Of a stretch of DNA of 64,000 bases, positions 5,857-41,445 are shown in pieces. The stretch is taken from assembly GCA_000091205.1 (NCBI GenBank), contig AP006502.2. One strand, given 5' to 3'. The DNA comes from Cyanidioschyzon merolae (lineage: Eukaryota). How positions within the stretch are numbered: position 1 is the stretch's first letter; the number at the start of each line of letters is the position of its first letter. The notes under the pieces were generated by a model. That model made no database searches. It was not told the origin of the DNA and saw only the letters and a list, made by a program, of their open reading frames with translations. The translations under genes were made by a program, and so were the position numbers.

Positions 5857-7211
5857 TCACTTGATGACTAAAAACTCTTGTTCGGCAATATTGAATTTGA
5901 TCGCGGCATCCTGCGATTCGCTTTGGGTATGAAGCAGGCGTGATAAAAGCTCATCACCAAGCACTGCGCCACATGTGAAGCAACCGGCCTTCTCCCGTAG
6001 AGCTGGTCTCGCCACAATTAGGCAGCGCGCCGTCTCAACAGCAAGTACAGCTGTGGCCTCGTACATCTCTATCGTGTTGCAGATCGCATGAACACGAACT
6101 CTGGCCTGACGATTGCTTTCTACCAAGCTCACCAACGCCTCAGCAAAGAAATGCACTTCCGCTCTAGTGTGCTTCCGAACTTCTTCGTCAGGCCCATAGC
6201 CGTCTGGTTTCCAGTACTTCAGAATCCTCCGACCGGCACGGCCTGCTTTAGAAAGGGCAAAAACAGTCATCGCCTGGAAGGAAAGTCTAAGCAATGCAGT
6301 TCTCGAGTCCAGAAGGACATAGTGACAGTATCGAGCTATTTTGGCAGACTGCGGATTCTGTCGTCCGAGCTGGCGTGCAGTAGCACGCACAACAAGAGGA
6401 TCTGAGCTCTGCAACGGCAGGGCGTAACCCTCAAGCTCGCCTCTCTTCATGTAATGCAGCCTGGGTTTGATGGGAACAGGCCTATTCTCTTGAAGATGGG
6501 TTTCATTAGCAACGCTCGACTGCGCAAAACGTTGCGATTTTCTCCGACGGTAGCTTGCCATATCCTTCAACGATTCCAAAATAGTGTAGAATGTCCCAGC
6601 ACTGACCCCATGGAGTGATCCTTGCGAAAGCGTACTCTGGCCAATGAAATGAATCAAGCATTCGATGCTTACAAGGGATTCAGCAGTGGGCGTCGCCACC
6701 TCGTGGGCATGCTTTTCCAGCAAATTGCTTACGTGTTTGAGAGAAAAAAGCACACCGAGGTCAGCGGGCACAGAATCAAAACCGCATGCTGGAATGACAA
6801 GCACCCCTGCCTCGACGGCGGATGAAAATACGTCGTTGCCCTCACTGTATGGAATACCAAGCTGGTCGATGAAGTTTGGCTCCCCCGTGATATCCACATA
6901 GTCCGCTCCCCCTTGTATACAGGAACGAACGACGTTAAGGCCAGACAGCGAGAAAGGACCTGCACAATTTAAGAGCACTTTTGTTCTTCTGGCCAGAGCA
7001 CTAGCCCCGAAGTGTCGCTCGAGTCCACACTGAAAATCTTGCACTTGCTGTCCAAGCTCTGGCGGAGAGCTTCCAGTTTTCTCAGGTTGCGTCCCGCAAG
7101 CGCTACTTTATCTTCACTTAAATGTTTGAGGGCATACTTCGCAACAAGCGTACCGGTAAAACCGGAAGCCCCGTAAACAATGATGTCAAACTCTCTCTCG
7201 ACTTGCGACAT
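5857..7211 (-). CDS. saccharopine dehydrogenase-like oxidoreductase (NAD-binding); single frameshift in a G-run near 7005
   Basis: ORF 6969-7211 gives the N-terminus MSQVEREFDIIVYGASGFTGTLVAKY...LAGRNLRKLEAL...VDSSDTSG. ORF 5857-7044 continues in the -1 frame with ALARRTKVLLNCAGPF...ADYVDITGEPNFID. A single extra G in the gggg run would join the two frames into the canonical SDH order. Confidence 0.6.
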
Positions 7212-9576: not shown

Positions 9577-9885
9577 TCACAGGAAGGTTCCTGTATGACG
9601 CAAAAGCGGACTCACGAGAAATACCGTGTCGCCGCGGACGTAAACCAGCTGAAGCTTGCGTCTCTCCTGTCTCACGATCTGCTCGTAAGTCTCCTCATCA
9701 AGTTCAGCTTTTTGTAGCGTTTCCTCGGCATCGCTTATAATAAGGTTCAGGTGCTGATCGTACGCGTGTAGAGTCCCAACGAGTTCTCGATCACCTTTCA
9801 GTTTAACGAACACCCTTTCGTCAAGGGCTATCCGAAGCAGCTCCACGGGCTCCTCTAATTGCCCTTTTCCGACAGTGAACGACAT
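9577..9885 (-). CDS. LSM3: U6 snRNA-associated Sm-like protein LSm3
   Basis: From the internal Met, [93 protein letters not shown] is collinear with LSm3 ([45 protein letters not shown]...EIDEETYEEI...FVRGDGVVLV). Confidence 0.8.
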   Translation of the reverse strand: [102 protein letters not shown]

Positions 9886-11966
9886 GGCACGCTTCCAGCG
9901 CAACAGAGAACCGCCCGCGTATTGACTGCTACGAAGTTCTTTGGCCGTGGAACGCCCGCGGTACTTAAACACAATTTGGCCCCACCGCTGCGTGGAATCG
10001 AGTGCTTGTCCAAAGCGAGGAGCAAGCGATCGAAATTATTATGCAACGTACACTAAAGATCTTAGGCGAGATCCCTGTAACATAGGTTCTTTATTGGATA
10101 GCGAAGGAGGACTGCATTCCTCCTTCTGGTAAGTCATACGACAGTACTCGGATAGCTGAGGAACCCTGAAAGAGAAAAATACGTGCGCTCAGCGCCAAAA
10201 ACCGGATTCTCATAAACAGTTTTGGTTTTACAGTAGAAAACGACCCGTTGATCACAGTGCACAAAGCAAAAGTGACGACGGTAGCCACCAGGGGCGTCTC
10301 TTTTTCTCGACAGCTTGTTCATATAGTTCTGCAAGCACTAGGATATGGTCGCAAAAAGGGTCCAATTTCATGCACGGCCATCTTCCACTGAAATCGCAAG
10401 TACAGATTTCCTGGAACGAAGCGATTGGTTTGAAGCACGGAGAAGTCGCTTTGTTTTTTCAGTCGATTAGACGTCCTTCCGATGAAATGGTCGAAGCCAA
10501 GGTAGGTTCTCGCGGAGCAGAGAACACGTTCTATGTACAATAGATCTCGAGGAGAACGAAGACGTCATCATCGGTTCTAGCTGCAGTGGAGTCATTTGGC
10601 GGCCTCAGTTTCGCTCGCAGAGAATGCTCGTCCACGAGTGCCGACTTTATCGAATCGTTGAAGACTTTTTCCCTGATGTCTGACAATGCCCTTCTGTTTG
10701 AAAATGCGATATTTCACCATTCCCTTTGTGTTCGACGTTTTCCAGACTCTATCGGGGAGTAGAACTGCTTCTCATACCTCCGAAAGCTCAGTGTTTCAAC
10801 CGCATCGAAAGAGTGTTTGCTATCGTGATATGTAATGATCGCTCCTCTGAGAGAATCCCTGAAGTACTTTGCACGGTGACACCAGGACATGCGTCGTTGT
10901 TGTTCCGCAAGTGCTTCTCCCTCTGAAAAGATCCTCATCTATGGGCAAAAAGAAGTGAGTTCATTTTCAAAAATAGAAAAATGAAGGAAAGTTATGGATA
11001 TGTAAGTCGAAGATACTGGAGGCCCGGCGTTGCCGGGATCCAACAAACGAAAAGAGTGCCGAGCCCAGAGGAACAGGAAAAGACGAAGAAGCAAAAGGGG
11101 CGCTAGATGTCGAGAGCGACACGATAGGGGACACTACGACGAGATTGTACTGAAAGCCTATCTTGTACGCCATATCAAGGATTCGCACTATCAAAAATTA
11201 AAAAAGCCATCAGAAACCGTAGCCCGTCCAACTCCAGATTCGTCGACGAAGAGACATCACCCAGGAGCACGAATGGAGATTCTGTGATCCGTGCTGTTCT
11301 GGGGCTTATCAACCCAACAGAAAATGTATCAGAGATATAAAATGGTGCTATCCCCTCATCCTGCTCTATTTCGTGTTCCTGAACCGAGAACTACAACGCA
11401 AGAAGGAGATGGAGCCGTGTGGGAAAAAATCAAGAGTCGTTGGAACGGAAGGCTTTCCTAATGGATAAGCGCTTCAACGTCGTTCCGTTATGCAACATCA
11501 AGTGGCACGTTGTGGCAACCATCGCAAGCGTCCTTTACGGCATCATGGAGATCTGTCCGGAGTTCGATGTAAGCAGGGATGAATTTACGGGTGAAAACAG
11601 GGAAACTCTTTGGAAGCGCACCTTCGATTTCAAACGTCTCAACACGAGCAAGTGAAAGGTATGCTCGGGGACGATCGAAAGCGATGGGGTATCTAAATGT
11701 GGACACTATTGGCACTTTAAATTGGATCGTTCTATTTTGTCTTCGGCTTCGCCCCCGCCGAAACGTGAAGACACAAGGAGATGGATCCTGCAACGCAGGA
11801 GGTGCAGGAGAACGACTTTGTCATCGGCGTGGAGCCCTGAAATACGAATGTCATGACCATCGCTGCTCCCATGCGTGAGGAAGATGGCACTGACGGCAAC
11901 TTACGACAAAAAGACATCCGTCTTTTAAAGTTCTCAAGAACGAGATATTATTGAGAATCGGGAATT

Positions 11967-12760
11967 ATGAATGCATGGAAAAAAAGTGAGGCATGGAGTG
12001 CAGGAGTGAAGGAGCATCGGGAAGCGATCAGCCGGGTGACGAGCCGCGGAGCGCACTTTCAAACTTCTCGTGAATTCATGAAAATTCGCGCTGCTCATGT
12101 CGCGGAGCTGTGGAGAGAGTATACAAAGTCCCGGTGGGCTCGTCAGCATATGAATCTGTATTGCTGGAAACAGCGTGCATTCGCAAAATTCTTCAATGCG
12201 TTGTGCGCTCTCACAGTTGATAAGAGTCAAAGGCTCGAAATAGCATAAACGCAGGGCCCTGTGTGCCCAGAAAAAGGAGCACACAAGCTTTGTCGAAATG
12301 AACATTCATGGATGGCACCCAGTGTCTTGTTCCGGTACGGATAGATGAATTCCGAACGTCATACGTGCACCATGAGCTGGGGTGTACAATTCAGAAGGTC
12401 GAGATGGAGCGAAGGCAGAGGAGCCCTGATGAGATAGAAAAGTACGGAGAGCTGAAAGATCATCGAACGGCGCAGAGGGCGCGAGTTCGAGGAATCCCTG
12501 CGTGAATGAGTTCCACCGGAGGCAATAAGCCAATGGAGTTCGTGAAGCGAGACTTAAACGCCGCGATCAATATCAGAAGATGTGCCCTGCTGAAGACGAG
12601 ACCTGCAGAGCTGACGCGATCCAAGTTTATGGGGCAGCCCCTTATGCCCGATACGTGCAGGAAGCAGCTGAAGCTGATGGCAGGGAGCCGATCAGAAAAG
12701 GCCGGGAGGCGCCTGTGAGGGGGTGTGAATTTACCCCACATGGTCCTGGGACATTTTTTC
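11967..12760 (+). mobile_element. TnpB/Fanzor-like nuclease C-terminal half, frameshifted (pseudogene); 3' end abuts inverted-repeat arm
   Basis: Three consecutive plus-strand ORFs in different frames carry the TnpB motifs in order. The first is W-A-R-Q-H-M-N-L-Y-C-W-K (the W...L.YK motif). The second is V-P-V-R-I-D-E-F-R-T-S-Y-V-H-H-E-L-G-C (the E/TSxxC motif). The third is E-F-V-K-R-D-L-N-A-A-I-N-I-R-R-C (RuvC-III). The zinc-ribbon cysteines are mostly lost. About 45 bp after the stop is still homologous to the 49220-49305 copy. Confidence 0.45.
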
Positions 12761-12789
12761 TTTTACTGAGGATACTATATTTGTTTCAA

Positions 12790-14118
12790 ATTAAAATGGT
12801 CCGTTAAGCTGCGCGCACTGTTTCTGCACTTCGATTTTTCCGAACACTTTTCGATATACAGCCTCATCATCCAATGTACTGCGACCGGGGGCTCCGCTTC
12901 ATCTGTTCTTTAGGGCTCTCTGTCGTCATCTCGAAGTGTCGACTCCGGCTCCGTGCCGCTGGAGCTCGTTCAGCCACACCAACTGGGATGGTTCGCGGCG
13001 CCCCACGGGCAAGAGTTCGTGAAAGTACTGATATCACAACTTAATTTTTACTTAAGAGCTTCCACTCTATTTCTTTCCCCGACTTGCGCCATGCTCAAAT
13101 CACGCACTCTCCGAATTTCGATCTCTCTGTTGCAAGGCAACTCGTGGGTTCAGCACTGAGCGCCGTTCCAGTGACGATGAAAACAACTCGACGTCGTTCC
13201 TCGACGGCTTGTTCACAAGCCCAGGCCGCGAGTTCACTGGACTTGTCATCCCAAATAATCGACTCTGTCCGAAGGATGAAAACTCCTCTCTTTGTGGCAA
13301 TGGATGAAATGGCACCCAACGGCAGCATGACACCTCTCGAGTGTTCTCCGGGGGGCCCCCGAATCTTCTGTCTGCGTGGAAAAGAATCTTGTTCTAAGAC
13401 TTGAATCATCGCAGCGATCGCCTCCAGTGGACAGTGCGTCTCAGTTGTGCACGAGGACGGAACAGACTGATCGAAATATCTGGATGTGTTCCCAATCTTG
13501 GGCTTTTTTCAGGTACTTATTTCAACATGGAAAGCATCGCGCACCACCAATCCTCGACTGAAATGGAACAGCGAGCGCTTGCGCGTGCAGCTGCCAGAGT
13601 GCTCGCGTGCGGGACTACTCAGGGAAAGCGCGTGAGCGTAGCGCACGGCACAGGGCGCAGGACCGGAGGGCATCTACGGGAGCCGCCGGCGCTCGTCAAG
13701 CGCATTCACCGGGCGACAAAGCAAGCGCGCATGTACCACGGGGCGGCGCTTGGCGGATTAGGCGTTGTGGACATTCGTGAGGACCTGAGCGCAGTCACCT
13801 ACCACCGCTATGTGGGCGCATTAAAGTTGAACAGAAAAAGGGTGAAAATGCGAAGCAAAGGCTTGATTGCAACCTTCGTCTGTACATGAAATACGTAGAA
13901 AACAAGAGGAAGCGGCGAAATCGTGGCTGTAACGTTGCCATCAACATCCCTCGACTGCTGGCAACAGAGCTGGACGGATAGGAGAGCACGACGTATTGAA
14001 GGCTGGAGATAAGAGCGGGGAGAAGAACCAGTCACAGAAAAAGCCCGCGCTGGCTGGCGTTGGTGGCATCGGGAAGAGATCCGAAGCTGGGTTGATTCGC
14101 CCTCGTCAGCCGAGTGCA
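12790..14118. repeat. Inverted repeat A, left arm (~1.33 kb), partner 17338-18666
   Basis: Every ORF in 12953-14120 has a mirror ORF of identical translation in 17335-18502, with coordinate sums of 31455-31456. Examples are 13401-13889(+) = 17566-18054(-) and 13095-13409(-) = 18046-18360(+). DNA identity runs from attaaaatggtccgttaagctgcgcgcactg to ccgagtgc. Confidence 0.9.
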
Positions 14119-14266
14119 ATCTTTCAATTTTTTGTCTCGCATGGTAAGGGGCTGTGTGGAGCGGCGAAGAAATGAGAGACGCTTCGTGACGCGCCCCGTT
14201 GCCTACAGTGCTAGGCGAATTATGCAGCCGCATACGCGCGATTTGTGAGCAAACATGCCCGTACAT
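13808..14266 (-). pseudogene. Divergent TnpB/Fanzor-like C-terminal remnant (RDVDGNVTATI sub-family) at inner edge of IR-A left arm
   Basis: The ORF reads ...HSADEGESTQLRISSRCHQRQ...LSVQLCCQQSRDVDGNVTATISPLPLVFYVFHVQ. The pattern D-E-x-x-S-T then C-H...C-C then R-D-x-D-x-N-V-T-A-T-I parallels the E-x-x-T-S / Cys / DxDxNAAxNI order of the TnpB C-terminus. Identical mirror copy at 17204-17647(+). A third, more decayed copy lies at 29555-29700. Confidence 0.3.
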
Positions 14267-15683
14267 TCAAAATCATTCTGCGTATAGTTTATCTTAGACT
14301 GAGCCCGTACCCCTCTGGGCATACTGAGCTGAGATGCGCTCTGTCTATCATAGTACAGATCATGGAAAAAGCCGTGTCATGTGCTGCATGCAAAAAGGTA
14401 CTTTCTGCAGGAATCTTTGTTTTCTGATGCAGCGCGGTTTGAGCTTCGTTTTCAAATGGAACATTTAGTTGTAAAATATTAAGGACAACAGAGGGCCTGG
14501 CTTCATACGCGTTACCGAAGCCATTAAGGCCTAAATCCTGATGCGAAATTGCTTCTGGCCGTTTCTTGGAAAACGAACGGACTTCGAATGCTATTTTTCT
14601 GCATGTTCTTCCATTATGAGACAACAACCTTGGGACTTATCGTGCCCCTTATGTCTGCTACATGGTTTGCTATTCCAGGAGAGCCCCAACAGGAAAAATG
14701 TGCGTGAAATTCCACCGCGAATCTTTTGTGAGGCCTTGAATCATAGGGGCGCCTAAAATACAGAGTCTACGCTGCTTAAAATCCGAATGAAAATATCCTG
14801 CGCCCCTGGGAACGAGAGTGCTTTCCCGAAAAGAGGGGCCCTCTGGAGCGATTTCTTTGTTCTCTTCGATTGACAATTCTTGGAATGTGTGGATATTTTG
14901 AACGTATACGCAAAATCACGGGGAGTTACGCCCAACAAACTTGCACGCGTGAATAGTGGATGAGGTTCATTAAGGCGTAAATTTTTGGTCTTCGAGGTTC
15001 CCCTGAGCGCCTATTCCCAATCATGAAGTAAAGAATTTACATATCTCTCCTCACGCATCTAGCACTGTAAGTACACTCGCAACTTGTTTCCGAATGTATG
15101 ATCAGCCACTCTGAAGCTAGTCATGAAGAGTTCATTCGCAATGTCTGGCGCATTTTCAAGCCTTTCAAGGTCTGATACCCTCTAAATGATATGCCATGAG
15201 GAAGACGCGTCAAGTAGACTAGCACTTCCTGCGCAGTGATAGCCCACCTATTTGATTCACAAAAGAACCTTTGAGCGAAGTGAAAAATACATCGAGCTTC
15301 CGAGAAGCAGGTTCCGTACTCCGAAACGCAAACTTCAACAATGCCACGGTAATTGCCATATGGATGCCGACTATGTTGCGTGCAAGGCTCAGGAACTTGA
15401 TACAATCAAACATTTTCCACCAGGAAGAGCCTACACTCCAACCTTGTATCCAAAGCCTCACGCAGTTTGAAGAATTTCTTGTAACGATGCAACAATCGTG
15501 CTTCAGCTATTTTCTTCGTGTGAGGCCCGCAAGTATAGAAGTCAGCCCTCGCTCCCTTACATTCTCTCGGTAAAACCATTATTGAAGCTAGTTGCTGTAC
15601 GAAACAGGTTCCCAAGCAGAAGCTACACCTATAGGTGGAACTTTTAGAGTTAAGCGCTCGGTGGTGAAACCGCAACTCCCAGC

Positions 15684-16097
15684 CTAGACGTTGAAGGACT
15701 CACCACAGCCGCAGGTTCCCTTCGCATTCGGGTTCCGGAAAACAAACTCACTGGCCAGGTCGTTTTCAACGTAATCCATTTCTGTGCCAACTACGTGAAG
15801 CATAGCTCTTGGGTCTACGAGTACTCGAACCCTCCCGTCCGCAGAAACGACTTCCTCTTCGAAACGTCTCCTCTCCTTCGCGTAGTCGAGCTGGTAAGAC
15901 AGCCCATTGCAGCCGCGCTGCTTCAGGGACAGTCGAACACCGTAAGACTCGGGATGTTTTTCGAGAAGGGACCGCAAACGCTTCGCTGCGGCTTCCGTTA
16001 TAGTCATAGCGGCTCTGCTGCGACACATGGTCAGAAACAGTTGTGTGGAAATCAAAACTTTGATTGCAATCTTTCGCTTCGCTTCCGGATATGACAC
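15684..16097 (-). CDS. ISCA: Iron-sulfur cluster assembly protein IscA/HesB (A-type carrier), probably organellar
   Basis: ITEAAAKRLRSLL...RLSLKQRGCNGLSYQLDY...RVLVDP...VGTEMDYVENDLASEFVFRNPNAKGTCGCGESFNV carries the three conserved Cys. The N-terminus is basic and presequence-like. Confidence 0.8.
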   Translation of the reverse strand: MSYPEAKRKIAIKVLISTQLFLTMCRSRAAMTITEAAAKRLRSLLEKHPESYGVRLSLKQRGCNGLSYQLDYAKERRRFEEEVVSADGRVRVLVDPRAMLHVVGTEMDYVENDLASEFVFRNPNAKGTCGCGESFNV

Positions 16098-17110
16098 GTC
16101 GTCGCCTCGTCACGTTCAGCAAGGCTTGTACCATTGTACCCACATATGAGTGCTTCAACCGGTGCACTTACTGTAATTTTCGAAAAGATGCTTCGGGTTG
16201 GATATCACTCTCCAAGGCGGCTGAGATTGCGCGAACTAACCGGGACGCTGGAGCAACGGAAGCTCTCGTTCTTTCCGGAGAAGTCCACCCAAAAAGTTCC
16301 CTCAGGAGGCACTGGATAGCACACACTGTCGAAATCTGCAAAGTTGCCATCCAGAATGGCTTGCTGCCGCACGTAAACGTAGGACCACTCAGCTGGGGTG
16401 AAATGAAAGAGCTCACAAAGTTCAGCGTGAGTATGGGTCTGATGTTGGAACAAGTCACAGATAAGTTAATGGCAAGCGTGCACCGAAGAGCACCTTCGAA
16501 AGACCCCTCACTTCGCATCGAACAGTTGCATCTTGCGGGTCAGCTGAAGATACCTTTCACAACAGGAATTCTTGTCGGTCTCGGAGAAGAAGAATGTGAT
16601 TGGAAAACCTCCCTGAATTGTATAGCAGCGGTGCACAACAAATACGGGCATATCCAAGAATGCATCATACAGCCCTTTCGTCCTGGTGATCGTGGTTACA
16701 TTTCGGGCCCGAAATTGAATGCATTCCATAGCGAGGCCCTTCCGTATGTTGTGTCACTCGCTCGCAAGATACTACCGACAGAAATCGCTATACAGATTCC
16801 ACCGAATTTAGTACTGTCTGATACAGACCGCCGAAAGGGACTAGAGCTCGTGTTCCGGTGCCTCGAAGCAGGGGCGTCCGATCTCGGAGGTATTTCCCCT
16901 GTCGATGAAGTTAATCCGACCTATGCGTTTCCTAGTATTACATGGCTGAGAGAAGTTCTTTTACTAGAGGGGTTCGAGCTTATGCACCGTTTGCCTATCT
17001 ATGAGCAATATATTCCATGGATTCAGAAAGCAGAGAAATTCGAACATCTTCAAAGACTCTTTCCCGTATACAAGCAAGGCAACTCAGCCAAATCAACCCC
17101 GAAATCGTGA
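16064..17110 (+). CDS. Radical-SAM enzyme, CofG-like (FO synthase subunit 1 family)
   Basis: N-terminal cluster motif VPTYECFNRCTYCNF (CxxxCxYCxF). Also GATEALVLSGEVHP and NGLLPHVNVGPLSWGEMKELTKFSVSMGLMLEQV (the G.LPH.N.G...E...naSmGlMLE block). The 348-aa length is typical of CofG. Confidence 0.55.
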   Translation: MQSFASLPDMTRRRLVTFSKACTIVPTYECFNRCTYCNFRKDASGWISLSKAAEIARTNRDAGATEALVLSGEVHPKSSLRRHWIAHTVEICKVAIQNGLLPHVNVGPLSWGEMKELTKFSVSMGLMLEQVTDKLMASVHRRAPSKDPSLRIEQLHLAGQLKIPFTTGILVGLGEEECDWKTSLNCIAAVHNKYGHIQECIIQPFRPGDRGYISGPKLNAFHSEALPYVVSLARKILPTEIAIQIPPNLVLSDTDRRKGLELVFRCLEAGASDLGGISPVDEVNPTYAFPSITWLREVLLLEGFELMHRLPIYEQYIPWIQKAEKFEHLQRLFPVYKQGNSAKSTPKS

Positions 17111-17203
17111 TTTTTTGACAAGCTCTGATAGGAGACCTTCACAAATGAGCCCACGTATCTATAACGGCTCGCAAAATATGTGCTGCAAAGGGCGACGTGA
17201 ACA

Positions 17204-17647
17204 TTGCTAACTAGGCGAAGATTGTTTTTCGTAGAGGGTTGGCTGAAATTAGTCAAGTTGCAAAATTTTCGAAGATTTTTACCTTTTCAGAGATGGTTTC
17301 CGTCACTTCACCAGTGTAAGCCAACAAATGAACGATCGCACTCGGCTGACGAGGGCGAATCAACCCAGCTTCGGATCTCTTCCCGATGCCACCAACGCCA
17401 GCCAGCGCGGGCTTTTTCTGTGACTGGTTCTTCTCCCCGCTCTTATCTCCAGCCTTCAATACGTCGTGCTCTCCTATCCGTCCAGCTCTGTTGCCAGCAG
17501 TCGAGGGATGTTGATGGCAACGTTACAGCCACGATTTCGCCGCTTCCTCTTGTTTTCTACGTATTTCATGTACAGACGAAGGTTGCAATCAAGCCTTTGC
17601 TTCGCATTTTCACCCTTTTTCTGTTCAACTTTAATGCGCCCACATAG
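17204..17647 (+). pseudogene. Mirror copy of divergent TnpB/Fanzor-like remnant at inner edge of IR-A right arm
   Basis: Identical C-terminal 100 aa to the 13808-14266(-) ORF. The unique N-terminal part EGWLKLVKLQNF resembles the TnpB W...L.YK block. Confidence 0.3.
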
Positions 17648-18666
17648 CGGTGGTAGGTGACTGCGCTCAGGTCCTCACGAATGTCCACAACGCCTAATCC
17701 GCCAAGCGCCGCCCCGTGGTACATGCGCGCTTGCTTTGTCGCCCGGTGAATGCGCTTGACGAGCGCCGGCGGCTCCCGTAGATGCCCTCCGGTCCTGCGC
17801 CCTGTGCCGTGCGCTACGCTCACGCGCTTTCCCTGAGTAGTCCCGCACGCGAGCACTCTGGCAGCTGCACGCGCAAGCGCTCGCTGTTCCATTTCAGTCG
17901 AGGATTGGTGGTGCGCGATGCTTTCCATGTTGAAATAAGTACCTGAAAAAAGCCCAAGATTGGGAACACATCCAGATATTTCGATCAGTCTGTTCCGTCC
18001 TCGTGCACAACTGAGACGCACTGTCCACTGGAGGCGATCGCTGCGATGATTCAAGTCTTAGAACAAGATTCTTTTCCACGCAGACAGAAGATTCGGGGGC
18101 CCCCCGGAGAACACTCGAGAGGTGTCATGCTGCCGTTGGGTGCCATTTCATCCATTGCCACAAAGAGAGGAGTTTTCATCCTTCGGACAGAGTCGATTAT
18201 TTGGGATGACAAGTCCAGTGAACTCGCGGCCTGGGCTTGTGAACAAGCCGTCGAGGAACGACGTCGAGTTGTTTTCATCGTCACTGGAACGGCGCTCAGT
18301 GCTGAACCCACGAGTTGCCTTGCAACAGAGAGATCGAAATTCGGAGAGTGCGTGATTTGAGCATGGCGCAAGTCGGGGAAAGAAATAGAGTGGAAGCTCT
18401 TAAGTAAAAATTAAGTTGTGATATCAGTACTTTCACGAACTCTTGCCCGTGGGGCGCCGCGAACCATCCCAGTTGGTGTGGCTGAACGAGCTCCAGCGGC
18501 ACGGAGCCGGAGTCGACACTTCGAGATGACGACAGAGAGCCCTAAAGAACAGATGAAGCGGAGCCCCCGGTCGCAGTACATTGGATGATGAGGCTGTATA
18601 TCGAAAAGTGTTCGGAAAAATCGAAGTGCAGAAACAGTGCGCGCAGCTCAATGGACCATTTTAATC
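17338..18666. repeat. Inverted repeat A, right arm
   Basis: Reverse complement of 12790-14118, near-identical. See the left-arm evidence. Confidence 0.9.
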
Positions 18667-18695
18667 TCTCACCGAGCTTGAACCGTCGAGAAATT

Positions 18696-19147
18696 CTAGC
18701 TGGAAGCGCGAAATTTGCGCGCGCGTTTGCATAGATTTTCGATCGCGATCTGAATTGTTCTCTTTATTTGGGAGCAATGTTTCATAACGTGCTTAGGCTC
18801 CTTACAAGTGTCGTGGCAGAAAACCGAACGGTCCAGTTCTGTTTGACGGGATTCTCGAACAACAATATCGCCGGAAGTTCGAGGGATTTGCATTCAGAAC
18901 AGAATATGTATTTCTTACGATTTCTTTGCTGGCAGCTTCGGGACCAGTGAGGTGGTTGGTTAATTCCAGTGAATCACTAATGTACAGCGAACCTTTATCG
19001 TTATATACTTGCACAGGAAAGCGTTTTCCTGTATTTACACTCGATTCACTAACCTCAATGGTTTGCTGTGCCATTCCATGCCAGAACCATGCTCCAGGCC
19101 AGAATACCATAAGTCTCATCTGGGTCAATTACTCTCTCTCACGGCAA
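18696..19147 (-). mobile_element. Degenerate TnpB/Fanzor-like C-terminal remnant flanking IR-A right arm (mirror position of 11967-12760)
   Basis: Minus-strand ORFs read ...F-R-R-Y-C-C-S-R-I-P / I-P-R-T-S-G-D-I-V-V...F-C-H-D-T-C...K-H-C-S-Q-I-K-R-T-I-Q-I-A-I-E-N-L-C-K-R-A-R-K-F. This shows RIxxRTS, Cys remnants about 36 aa on, then a K-R-x-I-x-I-A-I-x-N pattern equivalent to KRDLNAAINI. The match is at protein level only. The DNA is not alignable to the left copy. Confidence 0.3.
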
Positions 19148-19837
19148 TACTTTAGCGTTTCAGGAGAATGGATTGACTGAGTATTGAATGATTCCCTGGG
19201 AAGTTAACTCGACTCAAAGATGCTGAACGCTTCCAATGCACAAAACATTTCCGGACTTTGATCGAGGCGCTCACTTCTCGTTGCGGAGAATATTTGAGCG
19301 AATTTTTGCTGGTAGGAGCACACCCGAGCAAGTCTCTCACCTAGCTTTGCACTCCCATTTGACGTCTGCTCAGCTTGCTGGGGATCATCTGGTGAATCAG
19401 GCTCGTTTCACTTGTTTCCCCAGCAGCAATTTCAGTTTGCATTCTGCGCTCGTAATAAGTTTACGCCGCCTTGAATTCAATGGTGGTACTCGTAGAGAAT
19501 CATCTCTGCAATCAGTTCTCGCGCTCGTAGAAGGAACAGAAGAGCATCTTTGTACGCTATAACTCCAAGATCGTCACTGTCTACCTTCGAAACACAAGGC
19601 ATATCTGCCATTTCTTTTTTTGACTCCACTGAAGAAAAATGGCGAATGAACGCTTCCTGCATCCGTACAATCGACTGCATTGCGTTCCCCAGCGCAGGTC
19701 AACTAACCTCTAACGAAGATCGTCTTCAAGAGCCAGTTGGACTTTCAGGTCCTCTCTGGATCTAACCTCCACAGCATGCCACTCAGATGGATACGGTGCT
19801 CCAACCGTCGCTATCGGTTGTAACCCCGTCATTCCAA

Positions 19838-21152
19838 ACGTTCGTGTGCCTCCTGACGCCCATCATGCTTCACTCTAGTATAAAGCCCTCGAAAATTTGC
19901 ACACTATCATCTGGATTCTGTTCAACTCTTTCATTCCGCTCTCTTGATTTTGAGATAAGGCAACCGCGCGATGTATTTCTCTTCATTTATCTTGGACGGT
20001 TGAAAATCAGCATCGTTAGTTGAGTCAAGTTTAAGTTTCACAAAGTGCATGCAGCCTGGTCTTCCGTCGGTCTCCATTCTCCCTGCGTACTCCTTACGAT
20101 TTCCTGCCCTGTAAGGCGAAACGTCGAATCAGCTCTACCCATGATCTTCGGAAAGCTGTTCGAGTGACCCGTGCTCGCTGCCAGAGACCGGCCGTAGCCC
20201 ACTGAGTGGAACGTATAGTACAGAGGAGTCTGCTGTGATTAGTGGGCGTTGAAGTGACGAACGAGGGCCGCTTCGAGCAGACGCTTACGGAGTCGAGTGC
20301 ACCCGCATTGGTGGACGGAGTCTGCTTCGCTCTCGAGGGCTCTCTTGAGGCAAATATAATGGGGCGAGAGATGCAAGCAAGGCAGGTACCCCGTTAACGC
20401 CATGGTATGGATAAGACTTGTGCCGATCCTCTCGAGGGCTCTTTTGAGGCGAATATAATGGGGCGCGGAATGCAAGCAAGGCAGGTATCCCGTTGACACC
20501 ATCGTATGGATAAGACTTGTGCCGATCCTCTCGAGGGCTCTCTCGACGCGAATATAGTGGTGCGCGAATTGCAAGCAAGGCAGGTATCCCGTTGACGCCA
20601 TCGTATGGATAGGACGTGTGGCGATCCGAGTCCGAGATCCACTCGATAGGCGCGGGCGATCTGACGCGAGTCTCGCTCTCGGTGCGATATCGCTTCCGGC
20701 GTCGTTGGCACCTCGATCCCATCTGTCACCATCAGCTTGTCATTTGCCTCCTTCGGCACTCCAAGAAACCGTTCTATCAGTCACCACTTTTTTGGGCCAG
20801 TAAGGTGGCTAAAACGGTTCTAACTTCCAAACGGTGAACCGATTGAAGCACTCGAGATTGTCTCGCGTATCGTTTCATTTTTCAGGTTGATTCGATATTT
20901 TTCTCTTTCGTCATAGATATTCCGATTGCTGATGTGATTTCATGACGTACAAATGTTTTCTCGCAAGCGTGCGTGCAGATCTTGTATACTGCGATCAGGC
21001 CGTGTTTCACGTTCTGTCGCGAACGCTGGTAGAAGAACGAAGGATTTGTACAAAAATCCGTGTGGAATGAGGGCAGCTCGCAATGCGCATCCGGAACTTG
21101 CACGAGCATTTGCATGACGAGCTGTGCCATGGCAAGAGAAGCTATACTAGCC
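19838..21152. repeat. Inverted repeat B, left arm (~1.3 kb), partner 37853-39179
   Basis: ORFs 19787-20023(+), 20239-20601(-), 20285-20722(-), 20394-20759(-), 20616-20837(+) and the 3' part of 20882-21295(-) have near-identical mirror ORFs at 38982-39236(-), 38404-38967(+), 38283-38720(+), 38246-38611(+), 38202-38387(-) and 37874-38122(+). Confidence 0.9.
20331..20640. repeat. Tandem repeat, 99-bp unit x ~3.1 (mirror copy 38365-38674)
   Basis: The tctcgagggc landmark recurs at 20331, 20430 and 20529. Units are ~90% identical. The translated repeat STGYLPCLHSAPHYIRLKRALERIGTSLIHTM(V/A) appears in three frames. Confidence 0.85.
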
Positions 21153-22682
21153 TTCCTCGGGTAAAAGGCTACACAATATCTGATGGGGTCGTGCATGTCA
21201 CATGTAGGAAAATTCTTCCTGTTAAAATATTTTAGTCGGTTGGCTTCGCAGAGATTCCAGACCAAACGCTCCGACCAATTGTCTTTCCTGTGCATTCTTG
21301 TCTTACACTTGGTAGAATCTTTCTCTCCATTTTCTAGCAGTATTTCGCCTTCTCTTGCGCTCAGCTTGCTGGCTTCATTGTCGTCGGTAAACTCAACATC
21401 CGTTTTTCCGCCTGATTCATACGTACCGGATGGACGGTGAGATCAAGGCTCGCTTATTGTGAGTAAATAAGATTGCATCTTTTTTCCCACATATAACTTT
21501 ACATCATCTGTTCCCTAGCGACTTTGCCCATGGAATGGGATGTGCGTTTTGGTTCCCTCGCGCGCTCGCAAAGAGAAGCAATAGTTTGTTTCAGGACAAT
21601 AGAAAGAAGAGAATGATTTGTCTACGAGCGTTTTCACGAGCACGATAGACTCGTTCTCGCAGATGGCGTCTCACTATGTGAGACGAACATGCCCTTTGTG
21701 TGATAGAAATTCGCGTTTCAGTGCGAGATCGATAATATACAGTTAATCGTGCGACAATCTCACAATGTGGCGTAATTTTTTTGCTCATCCGTTTCTTTTC
21801 AATATCGTTCATATTAACGGTACATAAACTTCACATCACTTCTTTTCTTTGGTAGCTTTTCGTAGAGAACGTAGGGAATGGAATGGATCGATGGGGGAAG
21901 ACGCGTGTAGGTACAGTTTCGCAAATTCAGGCATGAGTGCATGACGTTCAGAACAAGGGCTAAACGAAGGGAAGCTCATCAACCTTTGAACCATAGAGCG
22001 ACTGACAGACGTAATGCCATTTTTCGCAGGCTCGTAGTGACAGCATACCCTCTCCCGAAACCTCTCTCCAGTTTGCAGGATGCATTTCATTTGTTGGTTA
22101 CGAGCGAGAAAATCAAAAATAAACAAAAAGAATGCGCTAGTCAATGTGCAACAGAACTCACTGTTCTGCGCACAACCACTCTGAGCGTAACGAACACGAT
22201 TCAATCGTGTAAAGCGTGTTTTCCGGGTGCTCCCACCATCGCACGATCTCATACCAAGTTACTTGAGGAGCGTACTTAATAGATCGTTTCCCCATACCCA
22301 GACACTGTCGTATGTCACAACGGCATACCAGTGCGCTTAGGAGTCAACTGACGACAAGTCAGGGAGTATACGCGAAGGGAGCCACACCGAGTGGCTCAAA
22401 ACCGGCTCCCGCGCCAATGCGCGTAGCTCTTGTACAATGGCTGCATAACCGCTTTTCATAGAAAACCAAAATGAAACCTAAGGCGTGTTGCAGCGACCAG
22501 CAAATCATCAATACTTTTTGGGCCGATTGGCGAGGGCGACTCCATCGACCGTTACACGAATCTCCGAGGCGGCGGATCCGCGACGCCTGCGGCTGCGATT
22601 TTATCTTCTAAATAATTTCGCATCCGCACAGTTCTAGCTCACAGTTGCCGATAGTAGTTTCCGGCTCCTTAGTTTCGTTTAG

Positions 22683-34371: not shown

Positions 34372-34555
34372 CGCTCAGTGAAACCCAGTATCTCAACTAT
34401 GCCAGCCGCGTCTTGTTCTCTGCTGGAATGGGACGGATCCGAGCTTGCGCGGCATCAATAGCAACGTGACAGTATGTCCCTGGACCACGGAGGATGGAAT
34501 CGCACCGTCATGCGCCTCATCATTCTTTATAGCCTTTAAGCTCAGTTGTGTTCGA

Positions 34556-35307
34556 CCCTTGGATGAGTATAATGAAATGGTATTTCGCTGGTTATAGAAG
34601 ATGCGTTCGAAGAGTGCTAATTTTCAAAACTAAAAAATCGAGGGGAAAGGTAAGGACACGGAAGTCGGGGATCCTGGAGTCCCAGTATCGCCAGGTGCCG
34701 GAAAAGAAACAAAAAATCTTCTTCTCGTCGACAATGGATCCAAGAAGAGCAAGTGACAATGAAGAAGAGGAGGGTAGATAGGCGAGAAAAGGTGCTTGCG
34801 CGGTGGGGCCACGGCGAGATTGTAGTGGCGCCGATGGGTCGTCTTCTAAGAATCAATGCAAAGGTGACTTCAATCAGCTGTAGAGCATTCAAGGAGTTTG
34901 TGAACCGCGACTTCAACACCACCATCAATGTCAGATGGAGCGTGATGCGGAAGTCTCGGTTCATGGACTCCATGATTGGTTGCCTCTGGTTGAAATCATC
35001 AATTCAAGGATTACTAGAACTCGTCTCATCGGCGCCCCTACAATCTCGCCGTGGCCCCACCGCGCAAGCACCTTTTCTCGCCTATCTACCCTCCTCTTCT
35101 TCATTGTCACTTGCTCTTCTTGGATCCATTGTCGACGAGAAGAAGATTTTTTGTTTCTTTTCCGGCACCTGGCGATACTGGGACTCCAGGATCCCCGACT
35201 TCCGTGTCCTTACCTTTCCCCTCGATTTTTTAGTTTTGAAAATTAGCACTCTTCGAACGCATCTTCTATAACCAGCGAAATACCATTTCATTATACTCAT
35301 CCAAGGG
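34556..35307. repeat. Foldback palindrome built from a TnpB/Fanzor-like 3' fragment
   Basis: ORF 34548-34781(+) = 35082-35318(-), 34630-34812(-) = 35051-35233(+), and the C-terminus of 34617-34973(-) = the C-terminus of 34935-35246(+). The arms (34556-34842 and 35021-35307) encode G-I-L-E-S-Q...F-S-S-T-M-D-P-R-R-A-S-D-N-E-E-E-E-G, homologous to the 48858-48990 copy. The 178-bp spacer (34843-35020) encodes A-F-K-E-F-V-N-R-D-F-N-T-T-I-N-V-R. Confidence 0.6.
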
Positions 35308-35488
35308 TGGAACACCACTGAGGTGAGAGACTATAATCTAACTCTCAGTTACCGTGATTGCTCTCATGCCACAAATGGATAGACCTGGAGAAGCCCGTAC
35401 TACAGTTGGACGGCGCACGAATCTACCAACTCAGCACCCGCGCTGTTCCGATTTGTGCTGACGAATTGGGCGGGAAAGATGAAACAGT

Positions 35489-36094: not shown

Positions 36095-37852
36095 CTTTGT
36101 TTTTCCCGTCGCCGCTATCTGGAAAGAGTCACTCAGGGCAACCTCTTGCTGGCGGCGGCCCGATTTTTGCGTCACATGATGGGCAACTAGCGAGCCGGTC
36201 AAGAGTTGAATCACAGCAACGATTGCCTGTTATTTAATGAGTGGTACATATAGCCTCAACTGCTTGGTATAACCTTTCCATTGTTTCGGAGAATCAGGTT
36301 CGTTCAACGCAGGCTCGGTTCCGGATAATTTCACAGATCAGAATCGAGCAGATAGCATCATGAATTTTCTTCCACAAAATGACTGGCATTAGGATCATTA
36401 TAACCGACGCAAAACATAAACTCCGTTAATCCTATCTCAAAATCGTAGCAGTGAGTTCCGGAAACCTTGGCTTGAGTACCATTGTTCTGAATGTGCTTTT
36501 TCTCATGGATATGAAACAAACTAAGACGTCCTGTAAATTAGAGAAATGTAGCGGCAAGCCTCTATTCTCTGACTTGTCGCTCACGAGAAAAAATACCTTT
36601 CATGTGTCATTCAGTCATTACTACGTTCAGCAGCTGGATGAATCGCCTTTCTTGCAGCGCTTGTCCTGAACTTCGTGCATCCAAAACAGAATGTCTGAAT
36701 GTTTCTCTATGCGACCGTTTCTCCATGTATCTATTCCACCACAAGCGTTCTCGAGGTGATATCTTCACAAACGTTGCAGGATGTCAGCCTTCGGTAGCAC
36801 TGATACAAGCGATGATGAAGAGGCATGCGTGGGCAAAAATAGAAGAGCCCTGCTATTGGAAACACTCGCAAGTTGTACAAAACATTATTGATTTCGAACT
36901 GAAACGCAAACGGCTTTTGCAGAAAAGTCTGGTGCTCGCCTCACTGGATTAGACATCATCCGGGAAAAACGGTAAACCTATATAAGGAAAATGATAGAGG
37001 GGCGAACAACTGTTCGAAAAGAAGGCAAAAGCGAGCATTAAGAGAAAATCAGCCCCAGCAGAAATGCAATCGTGTTATTGCCCTCTAATCAGCAATCGAA
37101 CTGGATCGTTGGATACCTCACCCAGCGTGGTAACACTCTTCATGATCTGCTCTTCGCACCCTCTTCTGTCATTCTCCGAGACAACTTCGCCGTACATCTT
37201 TGAAAAGCGAGAGGAGAGAACGATACTCAGATTGGCACTGAGCTACTCTTCGTGCCAGGATATACCCCTGGTTCAATGCAGGAGAGGCGTATATTTAAGT
37301 GCCAGACGCGGTCTTAACGGACATGGATCCATGGAAGAATCATTAGCATCCATGTCTTTGTTCGTTGAGAAATCGTTCTCTGCCATCGCAAGCCTTAAAC
37401 TGATATGTTCCTTTTCCTACCGTGTGCGGGAGGGAGCGGAGTGGCGCTTCGGATTGTAACACGTGCTCGCTACGAAGGAAGTGACCAAAATGTACTCGAG
37501 AAATAAAAAGTACATATCCAGGAAAAGTGACCTTCGCACTGATCATCCCCGAAATGCGTCCGATCCGCGAGGAATAGACCTGGTATGGAGTATAGCAATA
37601 GCATGGAAATCGCCATACCCAGCAAGGGGAAAATACGAGGAAAGAGAAGGGGATGCATCAACCAGACAAAGTAGAGAATTGTACCCCGAAACAAGCACAA
37701 ATAACGACAGGACAAAAACTATAGAAGTGGAAAGATCAGTCCAAAATCGCTGCAAAGGCATAAACACTAATATACATGAACAGGAAGAGAATTCCAGAAA
37801 CTGAAATTCGGAGCACCAGTAAGGATCATATAACTTCGTTTTCGAGGAGGGC

Positions 37853-39179
37853 TCTCATAGCTTTTCTCTTACCGTGGCACAGCTCGTCATGCAAATGCTC
37901 GTGCAAGTTCCGGATGCGCATTGCGAGCTGCCCTCATTCCACACGGATTTTTGGACAAATCCTTCGTTCTTCTACCAGCGTTCGCGACAGAACGTGAAAC
38001 ACGGCCTGATCGCAGTATACAAGATCTGCACGCACGCTTGCGAGAAAACATTTGTACGTCATGAAATCACATCAGCAATCGGAATATCCATGACGAAAGA
38101 GAAAAATATCGAATCAACCTGAAAAATGAAACGATACGCGAGACAATCTCGAGTGCTTCAATCGGTTCACCGTTTGGAAGTTAGAACCGTTTTAACCTAC
38201 CTTACTGGCCTAAAAAAGTGGTGACTGATAGAACGGTTTCTTGGAGTGCCGAAGGAGGCAAATGACAAGCTGATGGTGACAGATGGGATCGAGGTGCCAA
38301 CGACGCCGGAAGCGATATCGCACCGAGAGCGAGACTCGCGTCAGATCGCCCGCGCCTATCGAGTGGATCTCGGACTCGGATCGCCACACGTCCTATCCAT
38401 ACGATGGCGTCAACGGGATACCTGCCTTGCTTGCGATTCGCGCACCACTATATTCGCGTCGAGAGAGCCCTCGAGAGGATCGGCACAAGTCTTATCCATA
38501 CGATGGTGTCAACGGGATACCTGCCTTGCTTGCATTCCGCGCCCCATTATATTCGCCTCAAAAGAGCCCTCGAGAGGATCGGCACAAGTCTTATCCATAC
38601 CATGGCGTTAACGGGGTACCTGCCTTGCTTGCATCTCTCGCCCCATTATATTTGCCTCAAGGGAGCCCTCGAGAGCGAAGCAGACTCCGTCCACCAATGC
38701 GGGTGCACTCGACTCCGTAAGCGTCTGTTCGAAGCGGCCCTCATTCGTCACTTCAACGCCCACTTATCACTGCAGACTCCTCTGTACTATACGTTCCACT
38801 CAGTGGGCTACGGCCGGTCTCTGGCAGCGAGCACGGGTCACTCGAACAGCTTTCCGAAGATCATGGGTAGAGCTGATTCGACGTTTCGCCTTACAGGGCA
38901 GGAAATCGTAAGGAGTACGCAGGGAGAATGGAGACCGACGGAAGACCAGGCTGCATGCACTTTGTGAAACTTAAACTTGACTCAACTAACGATGCTGATT
39001 TTCAACCGTCCAAGATAAATGAAGAGAAACACATCGCGCGGTTGCCTTATCTCAAAATCAAGAGAGCGGAATGAAAGAGTTGAACAGAATCCAGATGATA
39101 GTGTGCAAATTTTCGAGGGCTTTATACTAGAGTGAAGCATGATGGGCGTCAGGAGGCACACGAACGTTTGGAATGACGG
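37853..39179. repeat. Inverted repeat B, right arm
   Basis: Reverse complement of 19838-21152. Includes the 99-bp tandem array at 38365-38674. Confidence 0.9.
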
Positions 39180-41445
39180 CGTCAGGGCCCAAATCAATGC
39201 CTTTAGCACCGCATCGAAGAGACTAATGCTTTGCACGGTTATTCAGAGAGTCCATCAGCGTCCAACAGGCGCATGCGGACGATCCTTGGAAGGTGCACAT
39301 GAGACAGCGCTAGCGTGATCATCAGTACCGATTATAGGGAAGCATGAAACACGCATTAACCAACTTTTTAAATGAATTCGAAAAGCAAGTATCTGGTAAG
39401 TCGCGTCGTTTGGTGGAAACCTACGAAGTTGTACAAGCTATAGAACGCAAAAACTGTACTTGCTCTCCTTCGACGAGGGCGTACAACGAGTGCAAGATTC
39501 GATTCTGAAAGATTCACTCCGATGCATTCAGAAAGACATACAGTCTTCACGAGCACGGGTGCGCGTTGAATCTGGTAGACACGAAAAAGAGAAACTGAGA
39601 CGGATGCGCTTGCCGATGTACAGCAAGCTGAACGATCCTCAGATCGATAGAAAATCGAGCGTGAGAGGTTTTCTACGGTTTGAATCCACTCGCAACCATG
39701 CGCACAAGCAGTTTCCGAACGGAGACTCGAATGCTTCGATCAACATCCGGCGACCTTGTGCTTCCGGAGCGTCCAGTGGCCTTTTGCAGAAGGGTCCTGC
39801 ATTGGTATCCCCTAGTACTCATTGTGGGCATTGGGATGAGACGCGGAAGACTTGCGGTTAAACAAAATTCGATGGCCTGGACACATGGGATTCGATTCTC
39901 CCACTGAGCGAGGCAAATGTATGGCGCAGTTCAGCAGTATGGAATGGCAGGTGCGTAGAATATACAGAACGCAAGAGATATCCTTGCGCAATCGGTGAAC
40001 GATAACTATGCTGGATTATTCGATATTGCTGATTATACTGAACGCCTCGCTTGATGTGGCAGGAACTTTACAATTTTGGAAACGCACTCGGGCTTTCGTA
40101 TGCTGCGCTTTGCTTGGATCCAAAAATTGTAAGCACTGATAAATGAGACTGCTCTCTCGAGGTGCGTCGATCAAATGCGCATCTACGAGCATGCTCCAGG
40201 TATCTCCTCTCGCCCCGGAACGGCACAGCTCTGATTTTTAGCAGCGCGATTTACGTGGAGATCAGGTTTTGTTTCCGGGCTCGTAGTGCTCTGCGAAATG
40301 TCCTCTTACGTAAGGTTTTAAATGCTATTCAGAGGGAGCAGCTTCCATGAGAAGCGATGCGCGTAGACTCTCATGGACATGTTCGTAGCCTTTTTTAATG
40401 ACGCAGAATCCCATTGGACGAGATCCATTGGGAAGAGAGAGTCCACTAGCTCATTTCGTGGACCAAAACGAGCTTTCTTTTTGATAAATGCAGACAGAGC
40501 TGCATAGCGTACGTTGTGCGAGGCGCTGCCCTGTTTTTGAGCCACTGGGTGAGGCATCGGTGCTTCATTTACGCTTTTATCGCAAAGACATCAACAAACG
40601 ATATTTCACACAACTTTTGATTCAGTCCACATCAGGAGAAGACGACCAGTTTGCTCATTCGCGCATTTCGATGACTGGCCAACTTCAGCGGCTGGCGTCC
40701 ACACGCGACCACCGACCGTTTCACTGGCAGGTTTTCTACAATGAGACCATCCCTTGGAGAGGACAACACCCGTCGGACTTCAGCGTAAGGGCGTTTGCTC
40801 TGTAAGCCATTCGCACCTTGCCCCATGCTCACTGCAAGGAGCAACGTCCCAACCTAATATGCAGTGTATCAATTTTCATTTGACCAGCACTTTGCGTACC
40901 CGTGCATTAAACCTTCCAAACGTCCTTTTGAAATTGTAGTTTTGATACAGAGAGCAAGACTCGCGAACACGCGAAAGCTGTATATAAAAAATTGTACCGA
41001 GTAACGCTATCCGTGGTGCATCAAATTTCCAATTTTTCCAGAAACATTTCCCTGCAAAACGCATATTGTCGGTGAGAGGGTGATAAATCTCACCAGAGTC
41101 CCTCGGACACGAGAATACTGCTGTTATCCCCTTGGAAAGGGTTTCAAACTACCCTAGCAAGGTCAGCTTTCCATCTGGTCCACATCAGTTCTGCTATCGG
41201 GCGTGGCAGCACGGTCAGTCTAATAACTGCAGAGATTCCCGAACTACATTCTTCTGTCATCTGCTTCCCTTGTATCGGATTTATATATGGACTGGAATCA
41301 AGTGCCCCAATGATCACTCGATCGAACTCGCCCATGCCGACCGCATCAAGGCGCTGTGTTTGCGCGCCCTGGGGGCCTGCATTTGGTAGAAGCGCGGCAC
41401 CTTGAAAACTCAGCTTCGCGCGTTTTTGCTCAAGGCTTTCGACTG

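Follow-up and report, generated by a model that had tools for sequence, protein, structure and literature searches.

The 64,000-nucleotide stretch of DNA analysed here (the window) is nuclear DNA from chromosome 20 of the red alga Cyanidioschyzon merolae 10D. Head-to-head with a gene for an A-type iron-sulfur (Fe-S) carrier (ISCA1), it encodes a radical-SAM protein that is identified here as CofG, a subunit of the synthase for the deazaflavin FO (8-hydroxy-5-deazaflavin, 8-HDF). Judging from sequence comparisons, this CofG is predicted to perform the second half of FO synthesis and would represent a nuclear, intronless and split gene of cyanobacterial inheritance, with FO probably serving as an antenna chromophore and the adjacency of ISCA1 not amounting to a dedicated functional pairing; a probability of roughly 0.88 is assigned to this reading as a whole. 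The CofG gene and its cluster-binding motif are located as follows:

16091–17110, plus strand: CofG coding sequence (CDS), 339 amino acids plus a TGA stop codon (17108–17110), intronless, assigned by the NF004884 and TIGR03550 profiles and by identity to XP_005539275.1
16151–16180, plus strand: radical-SAM [4Fe-4S] motif C21-x3-C25-x-Y-C28-x-F (CFNRCTYCNF), residues 21–30 of the ATG-started protein

Comparison against family hidden Markov models (HMMs) identifies the plus-strand product, on its sequence, as a genuine CofG, that is, the predicted FO synthase subunit 1 (7,8-didemethyl-8-hydroxy-5-deazariboflavin synthase). With 346.7 bits on NF004884 (cut-off 209) the protein lies 138 bits above the threshold, and it reaches 251.2 bits on TIGR03550 (cut-off 213.35), with the profile alignment running end-to-end over residues 4–314 of 339 and HMM positions 8–323 of 340. 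The Pfam Radical_SAM domain (PF04055) is matched with 38.3 bits over residues 15–176. Among eleven CofG proteins from algae, cyanobacteria and Thermomicrobium, residues C21, C25, Y27, C28 and F30 are invariant, together with approximately sixty further positions. The first-pass annotation of this DNA, made from the letters alone, had reported a CxxxCxYCxF motif and proposed a CofG in a eukaryote. The motif is present as C-FNR-C-T-Y-C-N-F and the proposal is borne out, with both CofG equivalog HMMs passed and the gene being nuclear in a red alga.

The same annotation had advised that TIGR03550 be weighed against the models for CofH, MqnC and MqnE, and in this comparison CofG passes while the remaining families fall far short. 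The CofH models yield 27–33 bits (cut-offs 260–426), MqnC 21.8 bits (cut-off 428), MqnE 16.8 bits (cut-off 435), ThiH 26.5 bits and HmdB 18.8 bits, while the fused CofGH model NF006687 gives 208 bits against a cut-off of 1018, with the CofG half alone aligning. Membership of another radical-SAM subfamily could be argued from the relatedness of these families, the weak matches to the MqnC, MqnE, ThiH and HmdB models, and the nearest solved structures, which are HydG and ThiH; no CofG structure has been solved, and these two are the closest sequences in the PDB, at marginal E-values. Such a reassignment is nevertheless extremely improbable, as the MqnC, MqnE, ThiH and HmdB scores lie 300–400 bits under the respective family cut-offs while both CofG models are passed. 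The family HMM scores thus rule out identity with MqnC or MqnE of the futalosine pathway, as well as with ThiH, HydG and HmdB.

The extent of both genes of the divergent pair follows from their start codons. When bacterial-type starts are allowed, the listing of open reading frames (ORFs) gives a plus-strand ORF of 348 amino acids (16064–17110, TTG start) and a minus-strand ORF of 137 amino acids (15684–16097, GTG start), which share 34 bp (16064–16097). Because both extended ORFs require TTG or GTG starts, the overlap and the 348-residue length are artefacts of alternative starts of the bacterial kind applied to a eukaryote. The earliest ATG codons lie at 16091 for CofG (339 amino acids) and at 16028 for ISCA1 (114 amino acids). 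The CofG product from this start is 100 % identical to XP_005539275.1 (BAM83239.1; UniProt M1VCJ7), and that of ISCA1 corresponds letter-for-letter to XP_005539274.1 (BAM83238.1; "probable iron-sulfur cluster assembly protein IscA"), the two being adjacent proteins annotated on a single 1,621,617-bp record of C. merolae 10D. Both N-termini are retained in two other Cyanidiales lineages, as M-x-x-x-R-x-VT-[FW]-SK in CofG and M-x-R-x-RAAM in ISCA1. Measured from ATG to ATG, the two genes are separated by 62 bp and do not overlap. The 34-bp overlap at the 5' ends described in the first-pass annotation thus vanishes with the ATG starts that match the reference proteins, while of its stand-alone CofG of 348 amino acids the unfused state holds and the length is corrected to 339. 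The neighbouring features are:

15684–16028, minus strand: ISCA1 CDS (A-type Fe-S carrier), 114 amino acids plus stop codon, assigned by Pfam, TIGR00049 and identity to XP_005539274.1
16029–16090, no strand: spacer between the divergent ATG codons, 62 bp

The closest relatives of the protein form a 99 % identity cluster made up of C. merolae itself and hot-spring metagenome proteins, followed by orthologues in the metagenome-assembled genome (MAG) GCA_041825655.1 (64 %) and in Cyanidiococcus yangmingshanensis (59 %). Beyond these lies a plateau of cyanobacterial CofG proteins at 50–55 % identity, interspersed with those of the red alga Purpureofilum and the chlorarachniophyte Amorphochlora. 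Among the three Cyanidiales lineages, CofG identity ranges from 59 to 68 %. Among 185,579 prokaryotic species genomes, the 80 best-matching loci all come from cyanobacteria (47–54 % identity; one is titled "Candidatus Gracilibacteria"), and the CofG proteins of Chloroflexi, Actinobacteria, Proteobacteria and haloarchaea show 31–37 % identity to that of C. merolae. In a rough neighbour-joining tree the Cyanidiales proteins form a clade that branches close to the base of the cyanobacterial CofGs. This pattern fits the descent of CofG from the cyanobacterial plastid ancestor by an old transfer, as far as can be judged from such comparisons. Were the gene a bacterial contaminant or a very recent horizontal acquisition from a cyanobacterium, its nearest non-algal relatives could likewise be cyanobacterial. 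However, CofG lies on a finished chromosome amid typically eukaryotic genes (RING, RHD3 GTPase, LSM, Myb, kinase, NAC, eIF2B, topoisomerase VI subunit B (Topo VI-B) and valyl-tRNA synthetase (ValRS)), its surroundings are syntenic in three algal lineages, its identity to any cyanobacterium reaches ~50–55 % at most and its branching is basal, so that either origin can be set aside with near certainty.

Copies of CofG from environmental and SRA data all differ from the 10D gene by the same two substitutions, K172E and D244E (L006–L011, L014, L015), with zero synonymous differences over 1,020 nt, and appear to represent one closely related wild lineage. Two of these contigs carried apparent variants which were rejected. 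The 235-residue CofG of the JGI contig L014 is not a truncated gene; a complete ORF of 339 codons is present and the shorter product reflects the choice of the gene caller. The Logan contig L015 (SRR29605868) was likewise considered as a structural variant, and its positions 1–1428 comprise an amoeba-type ARP2 CDS and 3' untranslated region (UTR), 76–88 % identical to amoebozoan-type ARP2, joined to window positions 16104–18648, with CofG lacking its first 13 nt. This contig is most likely a chimeric assembly from a mixed sample of amoeba and Cyanidioschyzon.

The lengths of the CofG orthologues (338–345 amino acids) agree with the stop codon at 17108–17110. Besides the CofG gene itself, tblastn with the CofH of Thermomicrobium roseum and the FbiC of Paenarthrobacter detects no CofH-like sequence in the window. 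The absence of a fused CofH, as first annotated, is thus upheld, with the ORF ending after the CofG domain, and the C. merolae gene lacks the two-domain CofG-CofH architecture of FbiC-type proteins, which join both domains in a single chain of ~850 amino acids. In the alignment the CofH domain of FbiC is C-terminal, and a fusion would therefore require downstream sequence rather than an upstream exon. The upstream exon that the first-pass annotation had entertained as a route to an FbiC-like gene is accordingly discounted, since CofH would sit downstream, where tblastn finds none. No cofH occurs within 6 kb of cofG at any of the 80 best-matching cyanobacterial loci, and in Synechococcus elongatus the two genes are found at separate loci (PMC9178010). 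An unlinked cofG is the normal cyanobacterial layout, and the absence of CofH from 64 kb therefore carries no weight.

By analogy with the enzymology of the family, the [4Fe-4S] cluster held by C21, C25 and C28 would reductively cleave S-adenosylmethionine, and the resulting 5'-deoxyadenosyl radical would take a hydrogen from an intermediate which CofH is expected to make out of tyrosine and 5-amino-6-ribitylamino-uracil. Ring closure would then yield FO. In keeping with the algal literature, the product may be supplied as the antenna chromophore to proteins of the photolyase/cryptochrome family, which is the most likely role for CofG in C. merolae. Unicellular algae possess FO-using photolyases, with FO synthase occurring either as CofG plus CofH or as the fused FbiC (PMC8498797, PMC9178010), and FO (8-HDF) is the antenna of algal proteins of the photolyase/cryptochrome family (PMC8498797, PMC6125616, PMC8591175). 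In Chlamydomonas, PHR1 is a bifunctional FO synthase needed for photoreactivation (PMC6125616), while F420 production by eukaryotes is not known (PMC8498797).

Several observations weigh against this assignment of function. The obligatory partner CofH was not found by tblastn within the 64-kb window, and a literature search did not find published work on FO synthesis in red algae. In the alignment, the start of the protein coincides with that of cyanobacterial CofG and there is no N-terminal extension, so that a plastid location is not indicated, whereas the riboflavin-pathway substrate that CofG would have to meet is made in the plastid. The lack of CofH in the window, and a GenBank name which is still that of a hypothetical protein, could be taken to mean that C. 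merolae lacks CofH altogether and that the protein is a CofG-like relic or a moonlighting radical-SAM enzyme which does not make FO. This is considered very unlikely, given that the ORF is intact and clearly constrained over three Cyanidiales lineages, that the motif residues are all invariant, that the score exceeds the CofG equivalog cut-off by 138 bits, and that cofG apart from cofH is the usual cyanobacterial state. Participation in FO synthesis is thus the preferred reading.

The neighbouring gene product matches the Pfam Fe-S_biosyn domain (PF01521; 63.9 bits) and exceeds the cut-off of the general A-type-carrier model TIGR00049 (109.8 versus 58.8 bits), but scores under the cut-offs of the bacterial equivalogs SufA (114.9 versus 136.2), IscA (96.5 versus 150.6) and ErpA (78.8 versus 117). 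The three conserved cluster-ligand cysteines, C-x(n)-C-G-C, are found in ...RGCNGLSY... and ...KGTCGCGESFNV. The protein is 82 % identical to its Cyanidiococcus counterpart, and its top named matches are animal proteins designated "ISCA1, mitochondrial" (55–62 % identity), along with a homologue from Gracilaria. The likeness to animal ISCA1/MagR and to the Gracilaria protein extends over the whole domain, with the three ligand cysteines kept, although animal ISCA1 (128–136 amino acids) has ~15–25 more residues before the domain than the C. merolae protein, in which just seven residues (MCRSRAA) precede it. From its sequence, the neighbour is identified as an orthologue of the eukaryotic mitochondrial ISCA1, on which a presequence is not evident. 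ISCA1 is a housekeeping factor for mitochondrial [4Fe-4S] proteins.

The divergent pairing of CofG with a gene for an A-type Fe-S carrier, as first annotated, is confirmed, and it is kept in Cyanidiococcus, with a gap of 71 bp, and in the MAG lineage, with one of 70 bp. All three lineages are collinear for a block of five genes, coding for a saccharopine-dehydrogenase-like protein, an RHD3-type GTPase, LSM, ISCA1 and CofG. The pair is therefore no more conserved than its surroundings, and its retention provides no evidence of functional coupling. An alignment of the spacers of the three species reveals no conserved block, and a sigma-70 promoter scan, a model irrelevant to a eukaryote, found nothing. 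Any shared promoter, together with both 5' UTRs, must fit within 62 bp or extend into the neighbouring gene. Other divergent pairs in the window are also close, at 177–379 bp. The first ATG codons of the NAC gene (plus strand, 32190) and of a divergent gene for a 287-residue protein (minus strand, 32191) abut or overlap; if both starts are real, this pair is tighter than that of ISCA1 and CofG, while its Cyanidiococcus counterparts lie 125 bp apart. No IscA is encoded within 6 kb of cofG at the 80 best-matching cyanobacterial loci, and a joint transfer of the two genes from a cyanobacterium was rejected on this observation and on the eukaryotic ISCA1 type of the carrier.

The two genes might still constitute a co-regulated module, in which a bidirectional promoter in the 62-bp spacer couples the carrier to its client, possibly in a single non-plastid compartment. 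The head-to-head order with a gap of 62–71 bp is kept in three lineages despite CofG identities of 59–68 %, and no N-terminal targeting extension is recognisable on either protein. This arrangement is nonetheless very unlikely, considering that ISCA1 is orthologous to the general mitochondrial protein, that five-gene collinearity leaves the pair not more conserved than its neighbours, that the spacer lacks a conserved sequence block, that IscA is absent around cofG in 80 cyanobacterial loci, and that short gaps occur at other divergent pairs (177–379 bp, and possibly near zero at NAC). A more specific version, in which FO would be made outside the plastid and an ISCA1-type carrier, expressed together with CofG through a minimal bidirectional promoter that they share, would help to load the CofG cluster, is held to be very improbable; if true, a eukaryote would here have tied a housekeeping A-type carrier to a single radical-SAM client. 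The earlier suggestion that the adjacent IscA could service the CofG cluster is thus unsupported, the carrier being a general ISCA1 orthologue, CofG being of cyanobacterial descent and the two being linked at 0/80 cyanobacterial loci. The adjacency is best explained by strong genome compaction together with retained local gene order, rather than by a dedicated pairing.

An inverted repeat encloses the ISCA1-CofG pair within a centre of 3,190 bp, and its arms are:

12790–14132, no strand: left arm, 1343 nt, with a perfect core at 12807–14117
17323–18665, no strand: right arm, beginning 213 bp past the CofG stop codon, with a perfect core at 17338–18648

The two arms, of 1343 nt each, differ at only six mismatches, all of which are at most 15 nt from the ends, leaving a mismatch-free core of 1,311 bp. 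This perfect identity suggests a recent duplication or ongoing gene conversion, and inversion of the repeat centre is possible. Metagenome contigs (L008–L009; 99.6–99.7 % identity) reach from the centre into the adjoining end of each arm, and contig ends also coincide exactly with the outer limits of the core (12807 and 18648). These independent contigs rule out an assembly artefact. The repeat is absent in Cyanidiococcus and the related MAG, in which far shorter intergenic regions flank the genes. Searches of the arms for ORFs, tRNAs and Rfam families gave nothing convincing, scans of the whole window for tRNA and Rfam families being likewise empty, while diverged relatives of the arms occur elsewhere in the window, as do several other repeat pairs. 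ISCA1 and CofG together form a 1.4-kb coding island within ~12.8 kb (9870–15683 and 17111–22682) of repeat-rich sequence which is otherwise without convincing genes. The corresponding neighbours are 0.85–3.9 kb away in the two related lineages; on the right side in C. merolae, eIF2B and NAC are displaced by ~15 kb and inverted.

A second inverted repeat pair (19718–21159 versus 37843–39284; 1,446 nt, 95.9 % identical) is separated by ~17 kb, each copy carrying a short tandem array of 99-bp units (20330–20627 and 38378–38675). A direct repeat of 857 bp (49360–50216 versus 53492–54348; 99.5 % identical) flanks a gene for a 662-residue protein (51387–53387, minus strand) with a weak Rxt3 match. 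Furthermore, an 811-bp stretch just upstream of the eIF2B-family gene (34527–35336) matches its own reverse complement at 90 % identity, and part of this palindrome-like repeat resembles 48775–49105. Among the remaining genes of the window, that for ValRS (45217–48405) holds a canonical 168-nt spliceosomal intron (46878–47045; GTAAGT ... CTAAC ... TAG), which falls within the conserved motif DTW|FSSGLWPF, in a genome where introns are rare. The saccharopine-dehydrogenase-like gene (5857–7190) matches a 451-residue homologue in two reading frames, for residues 8–70 (7190–7002) and residues 40–447 (7095–5872), a pattern that could arise near 7000–7095 from a frameshift, from a small duplication or from an intron missing in the annotation. 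A sulfur-relay fusion of 692 amino acids is encoded at 56057–58135, combining a SufE domain (residues 141–258) with a full MnmA-type tRNA 2-thiouridylase (residues 300–669).

The CofG gene of C. merolae is an ordinary member of a known family, already known in kind and in the databases. In current records M1VCJ7 appears either as "hypothetical protein, conserved" or as "Radical SAM core domain-containing protein", while metagenomic proteins with 99.4 % identity in the same 90 % cluster bear the JGI label "FO synthase subunit 1", and the Cyanidiococcus orthologue is listed by UniRef as 7,8-didemethyl-8-hydroxy-5-deazariboflavin synthase. The practical gain is a safe basis for renaming XP_005539275.1 as CofG / FO synthase subunit 1. 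The use of FO by algal photolyases and cryptochromes is already established (PMC8498797, PMC6125616). A split CofG in a genetically tractable extremophile is useful to the study of the antenna chromophores of these proteins.

Compared with known systems, MqnC/MqnE, ThiH and HydG belong to the same broad radical-SAM clade, but HMM scores of 17–27 bits against cut-offs of 380–435 show that the C. merolae protein is not one of them. The N-terminal half of the actinobacterial FbiC (Paenarthrobacter ureafaciens WP_201435035.1) aligns to the whole of C. merolae CofG (35 % identity, E 3e-46), FbiC being a protein of ~850 amino acids with a C-terminal CofH domain which CofG lacks. The closest resemblance is to the cyanobacterial CofG proteins of Okeania, Lusitaniella, Gloeothece and Synechococcus elongatus, which fall in the same class of ~310–345 amino acids and share the start relative to the domain, the CxxxCxYCxF motif, 47–55 % full-length identity and a separate gene unlinked to cofH. 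Unlike these, C. merolae CofG is nuclear-encoded and incorporates a seven-residue insertion near DTDRRKG (residues 244–250), which in the alignment is partly common to other algal CofGs, as well as a short C-terminal tail. Among eukaryotes, PHR1 of Chlamydomonas reinhardtii is likewise an algal 8-HDF/FO enzyme, feeding photolyases and cryptochromes (PMC6125616), but it is a CofG-CofH fusion, whereas the C. merolae gene ends after the CofG domain. The Cyanidiales red algae thus carry a split CofG of the cyanobacterial type, and not the fused FbiC type described for green algae.

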